A DNA stretch of 32,000 bases from Fibrobacter succinogenes subsp. succinogenes S85 (GTDB taxonomy: Bacteria > Fibrobacterota > Fibrobacteria > Fibrobacterales > Fibrobacteraceae), in the NCBI RefSeq assembly GCF_000146505.1, contig NC_017448.1, positions 2,310,001 through 2,342,000 on the forward strand, read 5' to 3'. Below the pieces are notes generated by a model. That model did not search any database, was not told the DNA's origin, and saw only the letters and a list, made by a program, of their open reading frames with translations. Made by a program: the position numbers and the translations under genes. How positions within the stretch are numbered: position 1 is the stretch's first letter; every line of letters begins with the position of its first letter. Below are positions 469 through 32,000 of this stretch, one piece after another.

Positions 469-2631
469 ATGAATATGAAAATGAAAAATATTTTGATCGC
501 CCTTCTTACTGCATCGGTTGCCGCATCGGCTTCTGCTGTTGCTGACAATCAAAAGGCTTTGCAGGCAAAGGCTGATAGCGCCAATGCAAAGCGCGGTGTT
601 GAAATTGGTGGTAGCATTCGTGCTGTTGCACAGCGTTCCAGCTTCTCTACGGACCAGGACGTGCATAGCGTCAACAAGATGCCGAATGTCGAACACAACG
701 AATATGTGAGTGCTGACTTGAGCTTCGGCTTCCGTCCGTACGAAAACGTTCGCGCCAACGTGATTATGCGCCTTGGCGGCGGCATGCAGGAATACTTTGC
801 CGCAGCAGCAAAGACTCTCGAAGCCAAGTGGCTCAATGTCGAAGGCAACATCGGCAAGAACTTCTACTGGACCGTGGGTGACTTCCGCTCGGCAATCTCT
901 CCGCTCTCCATTTACAATCCCGGTATCGACATCTTGTACGAACCGACGATTTTCGCCCGCAAGCGCCACATGGCCCAGAAGGAACAGCTCCTCGAAGGCA
1001 ACAAGCGCAACCTCCAGGGTATTAACCTCCAGTTCCGTCAGGAAATCGACCCGATGATCGGTGAACTCCGCGCCGAGGCCTTCCTCGCCCGCGTGAACCG
1101 CGTGTCGGTCCTTGACTTTACCGGTGCTGAAGGCAATATCCTTCCGGGTGACGAAATCGCTGGTACGTCTCTTGCCTCTGCAACGGACAAGTGGCTCGTC
1201 GGTGGCAACATCGAACTCTTGCCGGTTCAGAAGAATGTGTATGTCGGTGTGACCCCGATGCTCATTTTCGATAATGAAAATTCGAAGTCCTACACTTACC
1301 GCCATCCGAACCGCGACCCGCAGGGCTTTGTTCCGGGTGATGCAGAAAACGCATACGAACGTCAGGAAATCAACCCGTACGAATACGGTCCGCAGAACAC
1401 GTTTGTGTTGAGCGCCCGTGCCGGTGCTGACGTGGGTGGTCTCGTGAAGCAGAAGGGTCTTTCTGCAGACGTGGTCGCCGAATACGCCATGTCCGTCAAC
1501 AAGGTGAAGACTGCCGCTTACGTCAATGATCTCGGTCTTCCGGTTCCTGAAACCGAAGAATCCATTAACGGTTCTGCCTTGCTCGCCACCGTGAACGCTG
1601 GCTACGAGATCGAAAACTCATGGAGCGCAGGACTTAGCTTGGACGTGGTCATGAACGACGAAAAGTGGTTCAACAACCTTGCCCAGTCCCCGAGCTTCTT
1701 CGCCCAGCGCGTGTTGAACTCCGACAAGGACGGAAACACGGTCAAGTACGGCGTGAACTCCCCGCTCTACTCTACCTTTGACGCTCTCTACAACTACTCC
1801 CCGAAGTTTACTCCGGTGGCCCGTACTCTCGGTACTGATGACAACGCCTTCATGGATGGTCAGTCCAAGAGCTACAACATCGCTCCGTACAACAAGAACT
1901 CCTGGGGTTCCAACGTCTATTCCGCAGCTCAGCTCGCTCTCATCAACCAGATGATCGATCCTGCTATCCAGGCAACCTTGCCGAACGGCCTTGCTACTGC
2001 AAACCGCAAGGGTTTCCGCGTAAGCCTCAAGGGTGACTGGCAGAACAAGATTGAAGCCCAGGCTCTCGTGAACATCTTCAACCAGGTGACTCCGGAAAGC
2101 GAAGCTATCGATAACGTGAGCTACAAGGAATTTGGCGGTGGTGCCAAGTTTGATGTCGCCAAGATGGCCGGCTTCAGCAAGGCTCTTGAATTCTCCGGTT
2201 CCTTCAAGCGTTCCGAAAACACGGTTACCCCGAAGGTCGGTACCGAAGCCAAGGTTACCAGCAACTTCCTCAACGTCGGTGCTTCCTTCCAGTTCTTGCC
2301 GCGCCTCGGCATTACGGGTGGCTTCCAGATGATTGAAACCGATTACGGTAATTCGAGCCTCATCAACCCGAATGTCGGTCTGGATGTCCCGTTCATGACG
2401 AGCAATCAGACTCAGTGGATGGTCGGCTTTGACTATGTCGTCGCAGACAATGCATGGCTCGCTATCAACTTCGGCATGATCAATGTCAAGAATGACTACA
2501 ACACGACTGTTGTCGGTGAAGAAGCCCGCAACTTGCCGGACTACTACAGTGCAACAGACGGCGCTTTTGGAACTTACGAACATAAGTTTAGTCAGGCGAT
2601 CTTTGAAGCTTCCATTAATGTGGAATTTTAA
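469..2631 (+). CDS. Large secreted outer-membrane beta-barrel-type protein, paralogue 1
   Basis: GGGAGG at 454-459 favours the ATG at 469 over 460. Signal peptide MKMKNILIALLTASVAASASAVA. The C-terminus is ...SINVEF. Strong codon bias. Shares blocks with the next gene (SPLSIYNPGIDILYEP / TPLTIYTPQTEILQEP; ATANRKGF / ATPDRKGI). Confidence 0.8.
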   Translation: MNMKMKNILIALLTASVAASASAVADNQKALQAKADSANAKRGVEIGGSIRAVAQRSSFSTDQDVHSVNKMPNVEHNEYVSADLSFGFRPYENVRANVIMRLGGGMQEYFAAAAKTLEAKWLNVEGNIGKNFYWTVGDFRSAISPLSIYNPGIDILYEPTIFARKRHMAQKEQLLEGNKRNLQGINLQFRQEIDPMIGELRAEAFLARVNRVSVLDFTGAEGNILPGDEIAGTSLASATDKWLVGGNIELLPVQKNVYVGVTPMLIFDNENSKSYTYRHPNRDPQGFVPGDAENAYERQEINPYEYGPQNTFVLSARAGADVGGLVKQKGLSADVVAEYAMSVNKVKTAAYVNDLGLPVPETEESINGSALLATVNAGYEIENSWSAGLSLDVVMNDEKWFNNLAQSPSFFAQRVLNSDKDGNTVKYGVNSPLYSTFDALYNYSPKFTPVARTLGTDDNAFMDGQSKSYNIAPYNKNSWGSNVYSAAQLALINQMIDPAIQATLPNGLATANRKGFRVSLKGDWQNKIEAQALVNIFNQVTPESEAIDNVSYKEFGGGAKFDVAKMAGFSKALEFSGSFKRSENTVTPKVGTEAKVTSNFLNVGASFQFLPRLGITGGFQMIETDYGNSSLINPNVGLDVPFMTSNQTQWMVGFDYVVADNAWLAINFGMINVKNDYNTTVVGEEARNLPDYYSATDGAFGTYEHKFSQAIFEASINVEF

Positions 2632-15688: not shown

Positions 15689-15720
15689 GCGATTGCCGTT
15701 CCTGACGCTTTATATAGCCG

Positions 15721-15751
15721 CCCCGCACACTGTTGCGGGGTTGCTTTTTTT
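15721..15751 (+). terminator. lysA terminator
   Basis: CCCCGCA-cactgt-TGCGGGG followed by TTGCTTTTTTT. Confidence 0.8.
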
Positions 15752-15788
15752 ATAGGCGTTTTATAGTATATTTAAAATGCGATAATTT

Positions 15789-16649
15789 ATGAATATTTGG
15801 CCTAAACTCAACTTGACTTGTGCGAAATTTTCTTTGGTCGTTGAACGTCCAGAGGAGTTTATGTGGTTCCCCGAGGCGGTGCTGCGAGGTGCTTTAGGGT
15901 ATTTTTGGCATGCCGAGGGCCTACGATTTGTTCGTCTATATGATCTTTTCTTTGGTGCTACCGAGCAGGCGGAACTTGAACGAATTGCAACGCCTCCGGT
16001 GGGTGCCTTGCTGAACTGCAATCATTGCGGCGAGAATCGTTTTGAATTGAATGCTATTTTGTTTGGAAAATGCGAAGAGCAAGTCCCTCTTTTGCTTGAA
16101 TCACTCCATATCTTGGGGCATGAGGGTGTCGGCGAAAGGTATGTACGTTTTTTTGTCGATGGACTGCCGAGGTTTAAAACAAATGAAATATGCAATTGCG
16201 TGTGTGATGATCCTGTCGATGGCCGTATTTTGCCGTTGTCGTTTTCCCCTGAACATGGCGTGTGCCTTGATATAGTGCGCCCTATGACGCTTCGCGCCTT
16301 GGGCGGTAAGTTTTTGATGGAATGGGATACGGGGGCGTTCTTCCGTAATTTGGTTCAGCGTCTGAGGCTGCTTTCGCAATTTTATGGAGAGCCGCTCCCT
16401 CCTGATTGGGGTGAAAATGTGCTAGAAGATGTTGCTCAAATCGTTGCTAGTTCTGATACTCGGATAGTACATCGTGCGCGTCGGAGTACGCGACAAAATG
16501 CAAGGCTGGATTACTCGGGATTTACGGGGTCGGTGGTGCTCCGCCGTGTGTCCGCCGACTTGTTTGGGTTGTTGCGCATGGGTCGCCTGGTTGGTGTTGG
16601 AAAAAATACCGTGATGGGTAGCGGGCGCTATTTGGTGTCGCTGCTTTAA
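15789..16649 (+). CDS. Orphan Cas6-like RAMP protein (Cas6 C-terminal / DUF2276-type)
   Basis: The C-terminal glycine-rich loop is LVGVGKNTVMGSGRYLV, a G-h-G-x5-G-x-G pattern. The N-terminal FSLVVERP..FPEAVLRGALGYF resembles a RAMP beta1. A basic RRSTRQNARLDYSGFTG precedes the G-loop. There is no SD before the ATG at 15789, so the start is uncertain. The family call has not been searched. Confidence 0.55.
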   Translation: MNIWPKLNLTCAKFSLVVERPEEFMWFPEAVLRGALGYFWHAEGLRFVRLYDLFFGATEQAELERIATPPVGALLNCNHCGENRFELNAILFGKCEEQVPLLLESLHILGHEGVGERYVRFFVDGLPRFKTNEICNCVCDDPVDGRILPLSFSPEHGVCLDIVRPMTLRALGGKFLMEWDTGAFFRNLVQRLRLLSQFYGEPLPPDWGENVLEDVAQIVASSDTRIVHRARRSTRQNARLDYSGFTGSVVLRRVSADLFGLLRMGRLVGVGKNTVMGSGRYLVSLL

Positions 16650-16668
16650 ATTTGTTCTCTTTTTTTGG

Positions 16669-16699
16669 TTGACGATATCTCCTTGGATAAGGATATAAT
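16669..16699 (+). promoter_or_regulatory. Putative promoter (T-tract, GGTTGACG, 19 nt, TATAAT)
   Basis: ttgacg at 16669-16674 and tataat at 16694-16699. Three other island intergenic regions have the same layout. Confidence 0.45.
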
Positions 16700-16738
16700 T
16701 ATTGGCGATTAAAGAAACTTTTAAACAAGGAGAACAAA

Positions 16739-16882
16739 ATGAATCAGGTTAAAAAAGTGATTGCTTACGTTGCCGCTACAGCTGAAGCCGCCAAGGTCCT
16801 CGTTGATGTGTATGAAAAATACAGGGCCAACGTTAAGGAAATTAAGGATAATTCCTGTTCCGGTCCGACGGTAGACGCCTAA
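16739..16882 (+). CDS. Mini-protein, 47 aa (MNQVKKVIAYVAATAEAAKVLVDVYEKYRANVKEIKDNSCSGPTVDA)
   Basis: A strong AAGGAGAA RBS lies 6 nt upstream. The helix is predicted to be amphipathic. It shares the MNQ(V/L)K start with the next mini-ORF. It is absent from the ORF track because it is under 60 aa. Confidence 0.45.
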   Translation: MNQVKKVIAYVAATAEAAKVLVDVYEKYRANVKEIKDNSCSGPTVDA

Positions 16883-16919
16883 TCCCCCAAAATTCAACCC
16901 CAAAAAAAGGAAATACAAT

Positions 16920-17018
16920 ATGAACCAGCTTAAAGGAATCATCACCATCGTCTCTGCTGTGGTTACTATCGTGAGTACCATTCAAAAAATGACCACGAAA
17001 AGTGCTCCCCGCGTATAG
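16920..17018 (+). CDS. Mini membrane protein, 32 aa (MNQLKGIITIVSAVVTIVSTIQKMTTKSAPRV)
   Basis: AAAGGAAA RBS. One hydrophobic helix is followed by a basic tail. A terminator follows directly. Confidence 0.45.
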   Translation: MNQLKGIITIVSAVVTIVSTIQKMTTKSAPRV

Positions 17019-17039
17019 AGCAAGTTTAACCTTCAACCT

Positions 17040-17062
17040 GCCCGCTTTTTAGCGGGCCTTTT
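17040..17062 (+). terminator. Rho-independent terminator after the mini-protein pair
   Basis: GCCCGC-ttttta-GCGGGC followed by CTTTTGTGCTTTTT. Confidence 0.7.
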
Positions 17063-17124
17063 GTGCTTTTTATATATTTCAAAAAAATCTCGGCGAAAAA
17101 TCGCTATCTGAAAGGAGAAGTTTT

Positions 17125-25416: not shown

Positions 25417-26388
25417 ATGCCGACGAACGCAATCAACTTCCCCAAAAATTTCCAGAACGCAGATAGTTTCGCTCGTTTCGCCAAGGTCTCGCCCTTGGTG
25501 GTTAACTGGCACGCTCTGGAGCATTGCAACTATAAGTGCTCTTTCTGCTACAGCGACTGGAACAGCCGTGATGAAGCTTGGAACACCCCCGAAAACGTCC
25601 GCAAGGTGATCGAGAATATCGCCCGTTTCCATGCCGATTATTTTGGCGCAGATGCAGCTCCCTGGCGCTTGAGCGTTGTGGGCGGCGAACCCATCCTCTT
25701 CCCGAAAAAGGCGCAGTTCATGGTCAAAACGGCTGTTGCGTGTGGTGCCGAGGTCTCGATAATCACGAATGGCAGTCACCTTGAGAACGCATTGCCCTTT
25801 GCACACCTCCTTTCCCAGGTGGGTATTTCGCTCGATTCCTTTGTTCATGAAACCAACTTGAAGATTGGCCGCCAGTGCAATGGTCACACGCTCTCCTTTG
25901 AAGAGATTTCGGATAAGATTGCTGCACTCCGTGCCGTTAATCCGAACGTCCGCGTGAAGGTGAACACTGTCGTCAACCAGAATAACTTCGGTGAAGTCCT
26001 TGTTGACAAGGTGGCAGCACTCGGTGCAACTAAGTACAAAATTTTGCGCCAGATGCCGTTTGGTGGCAACAAGGGTATTACGGACGATGAATTCCATGTG
26101 TTTATCCGTAACAATTACCGCGAGGACCTTTTCGGTCACGACGATGGTAAGCGTCACATCTTCATCGAGGATAATTCCGTGATGACGCAGAGCTATTTGA
26201 TGATTGCTCCGAACGGTTGCTTGTTCCAGAACGGTGGCGCGGAATACCGTTACAGCCGCCCTCTCATGGAAACCCCGTTTGAAGAGGCTCTGAAAGACAT
26301 CAACTTCTCTGCCGAAAAGTTCTTTAGCCGTTACACATCTACGGCGACGGACGCGATCCTCGCCCGTATGCATGAATGTGCTGCATAA
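25417..26388 (+). CDS. Prokaryotic viperin homologue (pVip, radical-SAM nucleotide dehydratase family)
   Basis: VNWHALEHCNYKCSFCY aligns with viperin VNYHFTRQCNYKCGFCFH. Other pairs (this protein / viperin) are VVGGEPIL / FSGGEPFL, VSIITNGSHL / VSIVSNGSLI, GISLDSF..TNLKIGRQ / AISCDSF..VNVLIGRG, VKVNTVVNQNN / FKINSVINRFN and QSYLMIAP / DSYLILDE. The start is set at the ATG at 25417. Confidence 0.9.
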   Translation: MPTNAINFPKNFQNADSFARFAKVSPLVVNWHALEHCNYKCSFCYSDWNSRDEAWNTPENVRKVIENIARFHADYFGADAAPWRLSVVGGEPILFPKKAQFMVKTAVACGAEVSIITNGSHLENALPFAHLLSQVGISLDSFVHETNLKIGRQCNGHTLSFEEISDKIAALRAVNPNVRVKVNTVVNQNNFGEVLVDKVAALGATKYKILRQMPFGGNKGITDDEFHVFIRNNYREDLFGHDDGKRHIFIEDNSVMTQSYLMIAPNGCLFQNGGAEYRYSRPLMETPFEEALKDINFSAEKFFSRYTSTATDAILARMHECAA

Positions 26389-26689
26389 ATTCACTCATCT
26401 TTCACTTCAAACAAAGGAGAATAACTTTATGTTCATTCTGATTTCAATTATCCTCGCAAAAATCCTCTAAGGCGCAAGCCACGCCCGGCTCGGAGGCGTA
26501 AAACCTGAGCCGTGTGGAGCCTACGGTATAAGGCCAACTTTTATCTCACATAGGTTCCCCGAGCCTTTAAAATCGGGGGTTCATAGACCTTAGGCGACGA
26601 GGTGTCGCTGAGGTCACAGTGGTCACAACGCTCGAGGCTGGGATGTTCCCAGTGTCGGTAATGCCGCATGGCAAAAGGAGATAAAAGTT

Positions 26690-27427
26690 ATGACGACGAT
26701 TACAACAAATTCCAAAATCGAATCCCTCATTGAATCCGCACGCAAGCATGGCGATAGCGCCTCAATCAATGCTCTTTATGAGCTTTACGAGGAAAAGTTC
26801 AAGTCTGCTGCGATGTATCATTTCAAACGTATTCCTTTCAACTTCGATGTGGCGCGACTCCCGAACAGTCGCTATAAACAGGACTTGATCATCAGTGCTG
26901 CTTACGATGCCTTTGTGAAGACGTACAAGACTTACGACGGCTCGCGTGGTGCCAGTTTTGTGACTTTGCTTAACAGGAACATTGAATGGCTCTTCAAGGA
27001 TCTGCAAAAAGAAAACGCTAAGGAAAGCAAGCGTTGGAAGAACAGTACTGACGCTATATACAGCAAGCGCAAGCAGGACTATACTGACGACCTTGAAAAT
27101 GTTTCCTGCAGTTCTCGCGATGCCTACGATACCTGCGACACCGACATGGTCAATGAAGTTCTGAGCACGATGCAGGGCGCAGCCCGCAAGAATGCCGAGG
27201 CTCTGTACCGCATCTTTTCTGAAGAAGGTGCTGATAAGCAGTGCTCCGCAGCAGACCGTCTCGGGATTTCGCGCCAGGCAATCAACAAAAGTTTCAAGTC
27301 GTACAGGGAATATGGCCCCAAGGCGATTCGCGACAGAGTCCTCGAAACGTTGAGGGAAAAAGCGTCCCAACGTGTAGTCGGGACAAAGACCACGAATTGC
27401 AATGTTTTTAAAGACGAATCTAAGTAG
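26690..27427 (+). CDS. Divergent sigma-70-family (ECF-like) protein
   Basis: AAAGGAGA RBS. The region-2-like segment is ALYELYEEKFKSAAMYHF...ISAAYDAFVKTYKTYDGSRGASFVTLLNRNIEWLFKDLQKE. The region-4 HTH is SAADRLGISRQAINKSF. Confidence 0.65.
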   Translation: MTTITTNSKIESLIESARKHGDSASINALYELYEEKFKSAAMYHFKRIPFNFDVARLPNSRYKQDLIISAAYDAFVKTYKTYDGSRGASFVTLLNRNIEWLFKDLQKENAKESKRWKNSTDAIYSKRKQDYTDDLENVSCSSRDAYDTCDTDMVNEVLSTMQGAARKNAEALYRIFSEEGADKQCSAADRLGISRQAINKSFKSYREYGPKAIRDRVLETLREKASQRVVGTKTTNCNVFKDESK

Positions 27428-27455
27428 GTCGTAACAAACAAAAAAGGAGTCTATT

Positions 27456-29450
27456 ATGACACAGTTCAAAAATCTTGCCGCATTCACGCTTTTCGCAGTT
27501 TCGTTGTTAGCCTCGGTTGTCAGCGCCGCCGGATCCAATTTGTTTGAATTCAAATCGGCGAATGTGCCGCCTGGTTCCATGGCCATTGAATACTATGGCG
27601 CCCTTTCGGGAATTTATCAGGGTAAAGACAACCTTTTCTTTAAGGGTGCCGACACGGTGCATGTGTATTTCGTTGGCGAACTTCGCGACAGCAAAATGGT
27701 CAATGGCGCTGCCGAAATCAAGGACGAGGAACGTCATGTCTCTTACACCGGGAACATTGTGAACGGCGTTATGCAAGACGACCATGCCGAAGCAACAAGA
27801 GTAAAGTCCAAAAAGTCCATGGAGTTCTTTAGCGGTAGTTTTAACGGCTACGAGTTCGACTCCTGCTTTTACGCCAATAGCGGAACTTCGGAACGGTATA
27901 TCGGAAAAATGTCCAACGGCAAATTCAATGACGTCAGTGCCTCTTACGTTGGCCCGCTGTACAGGATTTACAATGGGGATTTTTCCTCCTATGCCATCCA
28001 GAGCGACTTCTTTGATTTCTCGCCTGTGAATTTCAGTCGCAAGGACATGGCGACATTCCAGGGTGCCATGCGTGACGGCCGCATCGCGGACTTCGGGAGC
28101 CTTTCTGTTGTTCACAAAGGCGACACTCTGCACTATACAGGTGATTTTGAAAATGCCCAAGTAAATGGTGTCGGTACTGTAAAGGTGGGCGATTTGTATT
28201 CGTATGTTGGGCATTTCGCAAAGGGGCTGATTGCGGGGCTTGGCGAAATCACGTCGGATCATTTTTCTCGCCTGTTCACCGAAAGCGAACATGTACCTGC
28301 AGGGACTATTTCCATCAAGGGAATCTGGGCAGGGATTTCTGGACTCGGCACGTATTTCCGCGTGACGGACGAGGACGGTGCAAATGTCAAGCTCAAAATG
28401 AACGACGGAACCATCGAAGAGTTGAGCAGTCTGCAGCGTTTCAGAAACTGGGTTAGCGAAACAGGCGTTTCCGAGTGGATCGTGTCGCACAGAAGCGAAA
28501 TCGACAAAGTCATTACCGGGGCGGCCTTTGTAGATGCAGGTGTTTGCGCAAGCCTCCTGATCTTCCCGGCTTCGGCTCCGGTGACAGGCCCAATCTGTGG
28601 TGGAGGTTTCTTTACCATAGTGGGTACAGAGGCTGTGCTTCAGTTGATCTTGACGTTTGATGCCATCAACGAACAATGCTATACCGAAGATTGCGTCGAA
28701 GACTTGTGGAAAAACTTTGGCAAGGAACAGCTCTTCAATGCCGGATTGATTCTGTTGCCTCCGGTAATTGCACGAGCAGGCAAGGCGGTTGCGCCTACTC
28801 TCAAGTCGTATTTGGCTACGGTCAAGGAGTTTGGCTATACAAGGGCTATTGCGATGAGCAAGAACGCGCAGGCCGTGAAAGAGCTTGAAATGCTCCCGGA
28901 AATCAGCCTCCCTCGTGTCAGGGAAATCGATGTCCTCAACGACAGACTCGCCTTTAAGCAGGCCGTTGTCGACTACACCGGCAAGAGTTTTAGGGATGGC
29001 TTTGTGGAATTCTTTGTCCGTCTGAAAAAGTCCGGACAGGAAAATCTGATCAAGGACATTTGGAAAAGCCACAAGGATTTCATCAAGAACAGTGGAATCC
29101 GTGCCGGTGGTGAACACGAATGGCTCGAGGCGGATCGTTTCGTTGATTACCTGCTGAATCCGAAGTGGGGGAGTGATGGCGCTTACCTTGCCTACATACT
29201 CCCTAGAATGACGCAAAGGACAACGGGCGTAAAATTTGCCAATGGCGGCGCGCACACGATTGTTGACGAAACCGGGCGCAAAATTCCTGGGCCGAACAGC
29301 GGAAGTTTCCATAAGACTCTTGGTGAAACTATCGGGAGCTGCAATACCGCAAGCTGCGTGTTCGGCAAGATGAAAAGTTTTGCCTCGCGCGAGTTGACCT
29401 CGTCTTCGTACAAGGAATACCTCGCCATGGAACGTGCCGTTTTAGAGTAA
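27456..29450 (+). CDS. Membrane protein: signal peptide, MORN-like repeats, approx. 3 TM segments, then an unknown approx. 220-aa C-terminal domain
   Basis: AAAGGAG RBS. Signal peptide ...LLASVVSAAGS. Repeated YxGxxxxG units include YTGNIVNGV, YIGKMSNGKF, YTGDFENAQVNGVG and YVGHFAKGLIAGLG. Hydrophobic stretches cover residues approx. 352-402 and 426-440. The C-terminal domain carries GGEHEW, NGGAHT and SFHK. Confidence 0.8.
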   Translation: MTQFKNLAAFTLFAVSLLASVVSAAGSNLFEFKSANVPPGSMAIEYYGALSGIYQGKDNLFFKGADTVHVYFVGELRDSKMVNGAAEIKDEERHVSYTGNIVNGVMQDDHAEATRVKSKKSMEFFSGSFNGYEFDSCFYANSGTSERYIGKMSNGKFNDVSASYVGPLYRIYNGDFSSYAIQSDFFDFSPVNFSRKDMATFQGAMRDGRIADFGSLSVVHKGDTLHYTGDFENAQVNGVGTVKVGDLYSYVGHFAKGLIAGLGEITSDHFSRLFTESEHVPAGTISIKGIWAGISGLGTYFRVTDEDGANVKLKMNDGTIEELSSLQRFRNWVSETGVSEWIVSHRSEIDKVITGAAFVDAGVCASLLIFPASAPVTGPICGGGFFTIVGTEAVLQLILTFDAINEQCYTEDCVEDLWKNFGKEQLFNAGLILLPPVIARAGKAVAPTLKSYLATVKEFGYTRAIAMSKNAQAVKELEMLPEISLPRVREIDVLNDRLAFKQAVVDYTGKSFRDGFVEFFVRLKKSGQENLIKDIWKSHKDFIKNSGIRAGGEHEWLEADRFVDYLLNPKWGSDGAYLAYILPRMTQRTTGVKFANGGAHTIVDETGRKIPGPNSGSFHKTLGETIGSCNTASCVFGKMKSFASRELTSSSYKEYLAMERAVLE

Positions 29451-29477
29451 CACTCAATTTTTAAAAGGAGATAAAAA

Positions 29478-30164
29478 ATGCAGAATTTCAAGAATTACCG
29501 TAAATACGAAATTAGCAGCAGGCTTGGTGACAACCTTCCGCTTGACGTGATGATTGTGGGCGCTACAGGTGCTGGCAAGTCGTCGCTCGTCAATGCCCTT
29601 TGTGGCGGAGCGGTTGCATGCGTGGGCGAGGGCGTGGACCCCGAAACCATGGATATCACTCGCTATGCGCTCAACAACCATTTTTGCGTGTGGGATACGC
29701 CTGGGCTTGGCGACAGTGCCGTTGCGGATGCTAGCCATAAACGCAATATTGTCAAACATCTGCTGAAGACATACGAAAATGGCGGAGCGCGTTACCGTTT
29801 CATGGACCTTGTCCTTGTGGTGCTCGAGGGCGGCATTCGTGACATGGGCTCGTGCTACTCGCTTTTGAACGAAGTCGTTGTCCCGAACATTGACCGCGAA
29901 CGCATCGTTGTGGCTATCAACCAGGCCGATATCGCCATGAAGGGGACGCATTGGGATTCTTGGCGCAACAAGCCCGATGCGGTGCTTGACTCGTTCCTGC
30001 GCGACAAGGCCGAATCGGTCAGGCGGCGCGTTTACGAAGCGACAGGTGTTTCTATCCGTACGCCGGTGTGCTTCTCGGCTGGAACTGGCTACAACATGGA
30101 TGCCGTGGTCGATGCCTTGATTGAGCAGATCCCGCGCTACCGCCCAGCCGTGCGCCATGCATGA
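29478..30164 (+). CDS. P-loop GTPase, YfjP/YeeP (MMR_HSR1)-like, paralogue 1
   Basis: G1 is GATGAGKSS, G3 is WDTPGLGD, and G4 is the variant NQADI. AAAGGAGA RBS. Confidence 0.85.
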   Translation: MQNFKNYRKYEISSRLGDNLPLDVMIVGATGAGKSSLVNALCGGAVACVGEGVDPETMDITRYALNNHFCVWDTPGLGDSAVADASHKRNIVKHLLKTYENGGARYRFMDLVLVVLEGGIRDMGSCYSLLNEVVVPNIDRERIVVAINQADIAMKGTHWDSWRNKPDAVLDSFLRDKAESVRRRVYEATGVSIRTPVCFSAGTGYNMDAVVDALIEQIPRYRPAVRHA

Positions 30165-30179
30165 AGTTGAAAAAAATGG

Positions 30180-30210
30180 TTGACACTTTCACCGCAAAAG
30201 CAGATGTAAT
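30180..30210 (+). promoter_or_regulatory. Putative promoter (A-tract, GGTTGACA, 19 nt, TGTAAT)
   Basis: ttgaca at 30180-30185 and tgtaat at 30205-30210, with gaaaaaaat upstream. Confidence 0.45.
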
Positions 30211-30249
30211 AGACAAAAGAATTCAACAAGGTTCATAAGGAGAACTAAA

Positions 30250-31266
30250 ATGACTTACAATACGAACAACATGGAATTTGTTACCAAGATGGAACACGAT
30301 ATCGAAGCCTCTGGCCTCCCGGATGCAGTCAAGCACAAGCTTCTTGCCAACTTGCTGCTCCTCAAGAGCAAGAAGGTGAACCTCCTCATCACGGGTGCCA
30401 CGGGCTGTGGCAAGAGTTCAACCATCAACGCGCTCTTTAATGCCGACGTGTCGAAGGTGGGTGTAGGTGTGGACCCCGAAACCATGGAAATCGAGAAGTA
30501 CGAACTCGGCAACCTCGTTTTGTGGGATAGCCCGGGGCTTGGCGACGGCAAGGAAGCCGACAACCGTCACGCGAAAAACCTCACCGCGAAACTCCTCGAA
30601 CGCGACGCCGATGGCAATCCGCTGATTGACCTCGTGCTGGTGATTCTCGACGGCAGCTCCCGCGACATGGGTACTTCCTTCGAGCTTATCAGCAACGTGA
30701 TTGTCCCGAACCTCGGCGAAGACAAGTCCCGCATTCTGGTAGCGATCAACCAGGCCGACATGGCCATGAAGGGTCGCGGCTGGGACCGCGTGAACAACAG
30801 GCCCGAACCCGCTTTGGAGCAGTTCTTGCAGGAGAAGGTGGAATCCGTTAGGCGCCGCATCAAGGAAAGTACGGGTGTTGATGTGGAACCCATCTACTAT
30901 AGCGCAGGCTACAAGGATGGTGATGCTCCGCAGAGACCCTACAACTTGACCAAGCTCCTGTACCAGATTGTCCACTACACGCCCAAGGAAAAGCGCACGA
31001 TTTACGCGAACAACATCAACCGCGACCGTGAAATGTGGAAGGACGACGACGAACTCAAGGACTACCGCAACAGCATTCTGGACGATATTGTTGAATCGAT
31101 TTCGGACTGTGCTGAGACCGGGGCCGAGATTGGCGAAAGTCTGGGTGGCCTTTTTGGTAGCGCAGGCCGTACTGTGGGCCGTGTTGCAGGCCGCGTTGTC
31201 GGTGGCGCTTTCGGGGCGGTCAAGAGTATCGCGAAGTCCTTCTTCGGCGGACTCTTTGGCTGGTAA
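30250..31266 (+). CDS. P-loop GTPase, paralogue 2, with a C-terminal glycine-zipper / amphipathic tail
   Basis: GATGCGKSS, WDSPGLGD and NQADMAMKG. The core is clearly paralogous to 29478-30164. The tail is ...GAEIGESLGGLFGSAGRTVGRVAGRVVGGAFGAVKSIAKSFFGGLFGW. Confidence 0.85.
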   Translation: MTYNTNNMEFVTKMEHDIEASGLPDAVKHKLLANLLLLKSKKVNLLITGATGCGKSSTINALFNADVSKVGVGVDPETMEIEKYELGNLVLWDSPGLGDGKEADNRHAKNLTAKLLERDADGNPLIDLVLVILDGSSRDMGTSFELISNVIVPNLGEDKSRILVAINQADMAMKGRGWDRVNNRPEPALEQFLQEKVESVRRRIKESTGVDVEPIYYSAGYKDGDAPQRPYNLTKLLYQIVHYTPKEKRTIYANNINRDREMWKDDDELKDYRNSILDDIVESISDCAETGAEIGESLGGLFGSAGRTVGRVAGRVVGGAFGAVKSIAKSFFGGLFGW

Positions 31267-31319: not shown

Positions 31320-31565
31320 GGCGGTCCCGGTGAAAACCGGGGCCGTTTTTTATTTGGCAATTGAGGGCGCGGAGCCTAAAATTTCCCATTTTCACTCAAA
31401 AAAGTGTAAATTTAAGGTGTCCGGTCTGCATGGCCGGGTCGCAACTTGACATTTGATACAGACAACAAAAACGCCAATTTCGGGTGCGGCTGTTGCCAAC
31501 GGCCGCCTGGAACCCTTTATTTATGCAGGTTCCAGAGGGGTACTCCCTGAAAAGCATTCCTCTCG
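31320..31565. repeat. Non-coding repeat unit, copy 1
   Basis: Bases 31320-31466 match 31674-31820 at a 354-bp offset, with 5 mismatches in 147 nt counted by eye. Bases 31467-31565 recur at 31849-31869 and 31921-32000. Confidence 0.9.
31323..31351 (+). terminator. Rho-independent terminator (also the start of repeat copy 1)
   Basis: GGTCCCGGT-gaaa-ACCGGGGCC followed by GTTTTTT. Confidence 0.8.
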
Positions 31566-31593
31566 CAAGAGAGATCTTTTTTCAAAAAACAGG

Positions 31594-31624
31594 TTGACAC
31601 TTTTGTTGTCTTTGTCGATATATG
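31594..31624 (+). promoter_or_regulatory. Putative promoter (A-tract, GGTTGACA, 19 nt, TATATG) driving a short terminated transcript
   Basis: ttgaca at 31594-31599 and tatatg at 31619-31624. The 12 nt ggttgacacttt are identical to the promoter at 30178. Confidence 0.4.
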
Positions 31625-31673
31625 TTATGTCAGACGCTCGTTACGTTCGGCATAACATTTTACTCCTGAGGTT

Positions 31674-32000
31674 GGCGGTCCCGGTAAAAATCGGGGCCGT
31701 TTTTTATTTGGCAATTGAGAGCGCGGAGCCTAAAAATTCCCATTTTCACTCAAAAAAGTGTAAATTTAAGGTGTCCGGTCTGCATGGCCGGGTCGCAACT
31801 TGACATTTGTTACAGACAACATTCGTGTTACCATGCCGAAATTGAGCTAAAAACGCCAATTTTGGGTGCTTTTTAGGGTTTTGTAAAGAAAAATTAAAAT
31901 TCTATTAAGTGCTTTTGCGTGCAGTTGTTACCAACGGCCGCCTGGAACCCTTTATTTATGCAGGTTCCAGAGGGGTACTCCCTGAAAAGCATTACTCTCG
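31674..32000. repeat. Non-coding repeat unit, copy 2, with two insertions; truncated by the window end
   Basis: Collinear with copy 1. Extra segments sit at 31821-31848 and 31870-31920. Confidence 0.9.
31677..31705 (+). terminator. Rho-independent terminator (start of repeat copy 2)
   Basis: GGTCCCGG-taaaaa-TCGGGGCC followed by GTTTTTT. Confidence 0.75.

Follow-up and report, generated by a model that had tools for sequence, protein, structure and literature searches.

The open reading frame (ORF) at positions 15789-16649 of a 32,000-nucleotide stretch of the Fibrobacter succinogenes subsp. succinogenes S85 genome (contig NC_017448.1, positions 2,310,001 to 2,342,000; the whole stretch is referred to below as the window) encodes a true Cas6, as demonstrated by profile hidden Markov models (HMMs), the predicted fold and the genomic context. 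Very probably, this is the ordinary CRISPR RNA (crRNA)-processing Cas6 of a split, type III-B-like CRISPR-Cas locus. The original prediction, made from the window sequence alone, recognized a Cas6-like RAMP protein, and considered it to be a stand-alone enzyme with a role outside CRISPR. The former assignment is confirmed, whereas the latter is not: the cognate arrays begin at the last bases of the window, and the genome thus contains a CRISPR locus with a repeat that this protein apparently serves. The gene looks orphaned because the window ends at the first repeat and about 15 kb are inserted before the arrays. The absence of cas1, cas2 and effector genes within the 32 kb had been noted correctly. 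Hence the orphan appearance of cas6 is a window-edge artefact.

15789-16649, plus strand: cas6, pre-crRNA endoribonuclease of a divergent PF10040 type, assigned by HMMs, structural model and selection

The cas6 ORF has an ATG start and encodes 286 amino acids, including the N- and C-terminal sequences quoted in the original prediction. The Pfam family PF10040 (CRISPR_Cas6) matches residues 164-281 with E 3.8e-12 (47.2 bits at a cutoff of 25), and this match spans the region of the C-terminal glycine-rich loop that had been taken for a loop of the Cas6 type. Two PADLOC Cas6 models, PDLC01477 (E 2.3e-36) and PDLC01496 (E 4.9e-28), match the protein over its full length. The structure prediction that had been suggested as a check agrees with this. 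The AlphaFold2 model, constructed with 11 family members as input, has a predicted local distance difference test score (pLDDT) of 89.3 and a predicted template modelling score of 0.87, and shows a tandem ferredoxin-like/RRM fold with a C-terminal glycine-rich loop. All 21 top matches of this model in a Foldseek search of PDB are Cas6 proteins (E down to 1.5e-11, template modelling scores 0.5-0.66). They include TTHB231 and TTHA0078 of T. thermophilus, the Cas6 proteins of Sulfolobus and S. thermophilus, and the Cas6 domain of Cas6-RT-Cas1; the best match is TTHB231 (4c9d, E 1.5e-11). The two-RRM fold, the C-terminal glycine-rich loop and, probably, the association with a type III system are common to the S85 protein and the PF10040-group Cas6 proteins of T. 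thermophilus (TTHB231/TTHA0078, PDB 4c9d, 4c8y) and Sulfolobus (4ilm). However, it is only 10-19% identical to the solved structures.

The glycine-rich loop VGVGKNTVMGSG and the segment RxSxRQ...DYSGF are invariant in the alignment of the Cas6 family, as are R33, Y38 and W40. The ORF is intact, at 285-286 amino acids, in all orthologues. Pairwise comparisons of three lineages with the downstream gene cassette described below yield a ratio of nonsynonymous to synonymous substitution rates (dN/dS) of 0.09-0.17, with dS about 1 or higher, and thus the gene is under purifying selection. Its transcription unit is separated from the preceding gene by the lysA terminator (15720-15741), followed by a promoter-like site (15749-15778). 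Two cysteine clusters, NCNHCGE and CNCVCDD, are present in the protein as had been pointed out, but their interpretation as a metal-binding insert is rejected, as they are not conserved even in orthologues with 60-75% identity.

The other part of the locus is found at the very end of the window, where the original prediction saw no repeat-spacer array, and continues beyond it. Related loci are designated L001 and so on; L011 (CP001792.1) overlaps the window with one mismatch in 11,751 nucleotides and ends inside the arrays.

31320-31544, plus strand: CRISPR leader, copy 1, with direct repeats of 148 and 88 nucleotides common to copy 2; one of seven leader copies in L011 (families D2, D7, D9)
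31545-31581, plus strand: solitary degenerate repeat CCCTGAAAAGCATTCCTCTCGCAAGAGAGATCTTTTT of the terminal type, an 'empty' array, found with the L008 repeat and having the form of the array-terminal repeats of L011
31674-31979, plus strand: CRISPR leader, copy 2, with the direct repeats common to copy 1
31980-32000, plus strand: initial 21 nucleotides of the repeat that opens a genuine array, cut by the window end; the full 37-nucleotide repeat is at L011 11731-11767

The array was located only by means of the repeat taken from the locus of a relative, L008, and then searched for in the window. This pattern search produced CCTCTCGCAAGAGAGATC at 31559-31576, with 0.04 chance matches expected. 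Scans of the window alone with Tandem Repeats Finder and for direct repeats detected no array, since only one full repeat copy lies inside it. The repeat at L011 11731-11767 is followed by six more repeats at a spacing of 73-75 nucleotides. From window-equivalent position 31980 onward, the 37-nucleotide array repeat has the form CCCTGAAAAGCATT[A/C]CTCTCGCAAGAGAGATTAAGAC and the spacers are approximately 36-38 nucleotides long. Starting from 31.3 kb of the window, there are 46 copies of the 16-nucleotide repeat core and seven of the leader in about 10 kb. At least seven leader-array units together with cas1-cas2 come within 9 kb after the array start at 31980. The cas1 and cas2 genes (window-equivalent 34527-35830, approximately 2.5 kb past the window end) are embedded among the arrays and match TIGR00287 (214 bits) and TIGR01573, respectively. 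The cas6 gene lies about 15 kb upstream of the arrays on the same strand. In a published curation, 29 CRISPRs are annotated in S85 (PMC4852346). Comparison with Rfam yields nothing at the gathering threshold in the window and nothing at E<=0.01 in the arrays.

The RNA of the repeat forms a hairpin with a stem of 5 bp and the loop GCAA (CUCUC-GCAA-GAGAG), and exactly eight nucleotides, AUUAAGAC, come after it. A hairpin followed by such a handle is the classical layout of a Cas6 substrate. The substrates of the T. thermophilus Cas6 proteins consist of a hairpin and an 8-nucleotide handle, and the S85 repeat has the same architecture, a short hairpin with a GNRA-type loop and then an 8-nucleotide handle starting with AUU. 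We infer that the window Cas6 cleaves the S85 repeat. In the proposed mechanism, the downstream arrays would be transcribed from the repeated leaders, and Cas6 would bind the hairpin of each repeat and cut at its 3' base. This would generate crRNAs with the 8-nucleotide sequence as the 5' tag, to be passed to a type III (Cmr-type) effector.

The arrays beyond the window have additional features. Throughout L011 12100-21017 (window-equivalent 32.3-41.3 kb) they are broken by conserved hairpin-rich inserts of approximately 105-180 nucleotides. Each insert is preceded by a repeat whose handle is a variant one (ATGGCAAC, ATTGCAGC or ATTGCAAC) and ends in a half-repeat (..AGTAAGACTTGGAACTCTCGCAAGAGAGATTAAGAC); the inserts have no Rfam match. 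An insert of this type is also present after cmr6 in L008 (17799-17999). Possibly, these inserts represent conserved RNAs other than spacers, either crRNA-like or regulatory. Each array-terminal repeat (GAGAGATCTTTTTT) is followed by a unit consisting of a promoter-like sequence TTGACAC-N17-TATATG, a hairpin with 15-nucleotide arms and a terminator hairpin. One such unit is located at 31582-31710 of the window, and copies are found at L011 12451, 16285, 17795 and 19509. By its sequence, the unit looks like a candidate small RNA gene of about 80 nucleotides duplicated along with every leader.

The type of the system is suggested by related loci. The Cas6-pattern scan of genome contigs yielded only four loci. 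Relatives of the window Cas6 with 39-42% identity head complete Cmr1-Cas10-Cmr3-Cmr4-Cmr5-Cmr6 operons (type III-B) in the Fibrobacter contigs L004, L005, L006 and L008. In L008, the cmr operon is followed by repeats TGTCAGAATGCCATYGCTCTCGCAAGAGAGATT, whose hairpin is identical to that of the S85 repeat. These four type III-B loci share with the S85 locus an orthologous Cas6, the repeat hairpin and the flanking accessory genes (kinase/VWA/PP2C/p205, viperin, p245, p664). On the other hand, in the window lineage cas6 is followed by an inserted cassette and not by cmr1-6, and the arrays with cas1-cas2 are 15 kb away, whereas the cmr genes are about 30 kb away in a related contig and are not seen in 41 kb of S85. 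The ancestral order is the one still retained in the other Fibrobacter genomes, with cas6 directly before cmr1-6. In the S85 lineage, defence genes unrelated to it, about 15 kb in total, separate cas6 from the arrays with cas1-cas2.

The related contig is an 84-kb metagenomic one (L001/L018). It contains a cas6 gene with 75% identity and a matching downstream cassette, and farther on viperin, p245 and the GTPase block, arrays with the same repeat, cmr genes, and then more arrays; the arrays and cmr genes are situated approximately 30 kb after cas6. Homologues of Cmr1-like, Cas10, Cmr3, Cmr4 and Cmr6 proteins were identified by tblastn on this contig downstream of the orthologous cas6 (L030, L041), and Cmr5 was not detected there by the same search. 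Four further contigs contain the S85-type repeat together with Cmr genes, and two of the four also contain cas1-cas2 and a Cas6 paralogue. Just past the arrays in L023, from a strain 98-99% identical to S85, a gene at 954-2246 (minus strand) encodes a 430-amino-acid TIGR02221 (cas_TM1812)/DxTHG CARF protein with a C-terminal RNGFNH motif (Rx4H, HEPN-like); by its sequence, this protein would imply cyclic-oligoadenylate signalling by a type III system. Finally, a type III module has been reported in Fibrobacter (Shah et al., PMC6546367). The cmr genes of the 84-kb contig, the Cmr contigs with the same repeat, the CARF protein and this report together suggest that a type III effector is encoded farther along or elsewhere in the S85 genome.

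Several observations weigh against an ordinary crRNA-processing Cas6 of a type III-B-like locus. The 41 kb of S85 comprising the window and 9 kb beyond it contain no visible cas10, cmr or csm gene. No protospacer was found either among viral contigs, with three exact 25-28-mers, or among 50,697 phage genomes, with BLAST of 7.7 kb of arrays. Unlike the known PF10040-group proteins, the window Cas6 is matched by none of the NCBIfam Cas6 models, and phmmer finds no match to it among PDB sequences; it therefore represents a divergent subfamily. No residue-level alignment to solved Cas6 proteins was obtained with phmmer or profile-to-PDB comparison, and neither finds a match to any PDB Cas6 in the N-terminal half. 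The catalytic residues of Cas6 proteins are typically a histidine with a tyrosine or lysine; H41 is present in the window Cas6, and is replaced by K or R in two Cmr-linked relatives. Besides, S85 might rely for processing mainly on a different Cas6 encoded elsewhere, given that in other contigs of Fibrobacter a second paralogue, 33-34% identical to the window Cas6, adjoins arrays of this repeat. This paralogue is absent at the corresponding position in S85.

L035 3347-3982, minus strand: second Cas6 paralogue
L039 2453-3088, minus strand: second Cas6 paralogue
L022 10460-11329, plus strand: second Cas6 paralogue
L046 1008-1877, minus strand: second Cas6 paralogue

The cassette downstream of cas6 consists of two small ORFs (sORFs), each preceded by a ribosome-binding site (RBS), and two large paralogous genes.

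16739-16882, plus strand: sORFa, small amphipathic protein of 47 amino acids, with which the inserted cassette begins, RBS AAGGAGA
16920-17018, plus strand: sORFb, 32-amino-acid hydrophobic small protein (MNQxKGI...), RBS AAGGAGA, followed by a terminator at 17040-17057
17125-19131, plus strand: X668, with an N-terminal DUF3800 (RNase H-like) domain and a C-terminal TPR domain, according to the model and family profiles
19166-21412, plus strand: Y748, DUF3800-TPR protein paralogous to X668 over the full length; a terminator lies behind it at 21441-21460

The frame of sORFa is kept at 45-47 amino acids in L001, L007 and L016. For sORFb, both the frame and the length of 32 amino acids are kept in four lineages, with tblastn matches and pairwise dN/dS of 0.29-0.79. 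The region 16650-17124 contains a promoter-like site, the two sORFs with their RBSs and a strong terminator. It shows no excess RNA folding (z -0.04), and the only Rfam match near the sORFs is a sub-threshold one to DUF2815 (E 0.33). The interpretation of 16.6-17.1 kb as a structured RNA or a Cas6 substrate is therefore rejected, as this region encodes conserved small proteins and contains no repeat-like site.

X668 and Y748 are DUF3800-TPR proteins, as follows from family-level profiles and the structural model. They align with each other across the whole length (hhalign E 9e-60). An exhaustive profile search produced 157 representatives of the family; 18 of 57 members match PF12686 (DUF3800) and 12 of 57 match TPR models, and X668 and Y748 themselves have no Pfam match at E<=0.01. 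The model of X668, with pLDDT 77.5, combines an alpha/beta domain at the N-terminus with a helical, TPR-like domain, the C-terminal domain matching TPR structures. D9, E10, G12 and D200 are invariant or nearly so in the family. The possibility that these proteins are diverged Cas10 or Cas7 is rejected: there are no PADLOC or Pfam matches to cas families, and the family resolves as DUF3800 plus TPR. The two sORFs with X and Y also occur with LemA and peptidase M48 genes upstream and without cas6 (L016, L017), and a distant family locus, L015, has neither cas genes nor arrays in 16 kb. For these reasons, the cassette is best described as an autonomous module. In L001 (19026-22448) and L016 (12276-17289), it is followed by more defence-type genes, encoding a 1140-amino-acid SF1 (AAA_11/AAA_12) helicase and a wHTH-PRTase-associated protein. 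In L016, a 1167-amino-acid ATPase_2 (STAND-like) protein is inserted between Y and the VWA gene.

TPR and DUF3800 proteins (with the RNase H fold) have been published as accessories of Cas12a2 (V-A2) and VI-F loci, with a proposed role in interference or crRNA biogenesis (Altae-Tran 2023, PMC10910872; Makarova 2025, PMC12669027). DUF3800 genes are known to associate with non-coding RNAs (PMC5737381). X668 and Y748, likened to these accessories by domains only, have the same domain pair and are set inside a CRISPR-cas locus, and in the related loci L001 and L016 a UvrD/SF1-type helicase is nearby. However, X668 and Y748 form a tandem pair of paralogues behind two small peptides in a class 1 (type III-B-like) locus, and the S85-type cassette also occurs without cas6 upstream. 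It is conceivable, though unlikely, that the tandem pair together with the two small membrane or amphipathic peptides serves class 1, type III-B CRISPR-Cas as a hitherto unrecognized accessory module, or else as an alternative effector, wired to Cas6 and crRNA or to type III signalling. If so, the known link of TPR-DUF3800 proteins to Cas12a2 and type VI-F would extend to class 1.

These likenesses bear on the possibility of a functional capture of Cas6 by the neighbouring cassette. Cas6 would then process RNA for the two DUF3800-TPR proteins and two small peptides, or act with them, instead of or besides crRNA maturation, and the cassette would be an accessory or alternative effector module of type III. 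The adjacency of cas6, an sORF, X and Y recurs in the window, L001-L003 and L007 at 61-75% Cas6 identity, and the S85 cmr genes are not at the ancestral place after cas6. At the same time, all loci with this adjacency come from one genus, and the synteny may be merely inherited. The adjacency to 'nuclease-like' genes noted in the original prediction does recur in several Fibrobacter lineages, but is not obligatory, as evidenced by the cassettes without cas6 upstream. These cassettes, as well as the distant locus devoid of cas genes and arrays in 16 kb, speak against a capture. Moreover, a separate promoter-like site and separate terminators set the cassette apart from cas6; there is no repeat-like site near it, and the sORF unit has no excess structure. 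Thus the capture is quite improbable. Even less credible is the reading that cas6 stayed behind on displacement of the cmr operon as a relic that is decaying or lacks catalytic activity and has no current function. The distance of about 15 kb from the rest of the locus, the variation at position 41 across the family and the failure of the NCBIfam models would fit it. However, the ORF is intact in all orthologues, with the invariant glycine-rich loop and RxSxRQ...DYSGF segment, the fold is predicted with high confidence, and the substitution rates point to purifying selection. These rates, the intact ORF and the promoter-like site of its own make a relic very improbable.

With its assignment to crRNA processing in a split type III-B-like locus, cas6 adds one more divergent representative to a well-known family, and the locus is of a familiar kind. 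A non-CRISPR orphan Cas6 would have been notable, and the evidence points to a normal crRNA-processing enzyme. In general, the flanks of 'orphan' cas genes seen in fixed windows need to be checked. Of moderate interest is the splitting of a type III-B-like locus by an inserted defence island, as is the presence in this island of two DUF3800-TPR proteins in tandem, of a type that has so far been connected only with class 2 systems. The CRISPR region is of similar interest, as it consists of numerous short arrays that are preceded by individual leaders and broken up by the conserved hairpin-rich inserts. Fibrobacter has a key role in cellulose degradation in the rumen, and so its repertoire of defence against phages is of practical relevance.

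The remaining part of the region between cas6 and the arrays is occupied by other defence genes, and terminators split it into separate transcription units.

21571-25124, plus strand: p205, Ser/Thr kinase (22139-23383), VWA (23435-24121) and PP2C phosphatase (24021-25124), TerY-P-like, assigned by Pfam
25390-26388, plus strand: prokaryotic viperin (antiviral radical SAM enzyme), NCBIfam NF038283, 274 bits at a cutoff of 180
26690-31266, plus strand: p245, p664 and a pair of paralogous GTPases (29478-30164 and 30250-31266), which directly precede the arrays as a conserved block

The Pfam matches of the triad are VWA (E 1.8e-11), PP2C_2 (E 1.2e-54) and Pkinase (E 7.6e-11). PADLOC yields a match to PD-T4-6 and a weak one to TerY (E 0.003). 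The triad and the viperin resemble the TerY-P triad (VWA, PP2C and Ser/Thr kinase) and the prokaryotic viperins in domain content, and the viperin passes the NCBIfam equivalog cutoff. Unlike the TerY-P triad, there is an extra gene, p205, the TerY match is weak, and the gene order varies among lineages. The identity of the radical SAM gene as a viperin had not been mentioned in the original prediction. Homologues of these genes flank cas6-cmr loci: the kinase, VWA, PP2C and p205 genes in L006 and L008, a viperin with 66% identity adjoining cas6-cmr in L005, and p664 in L004. The block of p245, p664 and the GTPases also precedes arrays in L023, L025, L035 and L039. Thus this is a conserved defence neighbourhood, with the X/Y cassette inserted into it beside cas6. 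The two GTPases are about 45% identical to each other and are MMR_HSR1/IIGP-like. In S85-like and related contigs (L023, L025, L035, L039) the pair is always directly upstream of the first CRISPR leader. It could represent CRISPR-linked accessory genes, or else the synteny could be simply inherited.

The original prediction spoke of structured intergenic RNAs and listed four regions in which to look for processed RNAs. Two of the four do show structure, at 25.2-25.4 and 26.4-26.7 kb; the other two are accounted for by the sORFs (16.6-17.1 kb) and by the leader with the repeat (31.3-32.0 kb). The suggested comparison with CRISPR repeats revealed no repeat-like site in the two structured regions. 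The region upstream of the viperin gene (25160-25389) folds better than shuffled sequences, with z -3.5. Within 26430-26689, a short ORF of 13 codons has an RBS (MFILISIILAKIL) and is conserved in L023, L025 and L035. It is followed by a structured element of about 215 nucleotides (26472-26689) directly upstream of p245, with a minimum free energy of -95.9 kcal/mol and z -5.9, which has no match in Rfam. RNAalifold predicts 47 base pairs in this element, five of them with compensatory changes (four sequences from three lineages). The ORF and the element could constitute a leader-peptide or 5' untranslated region regulatory element of the p245-p664-GTPase operon.

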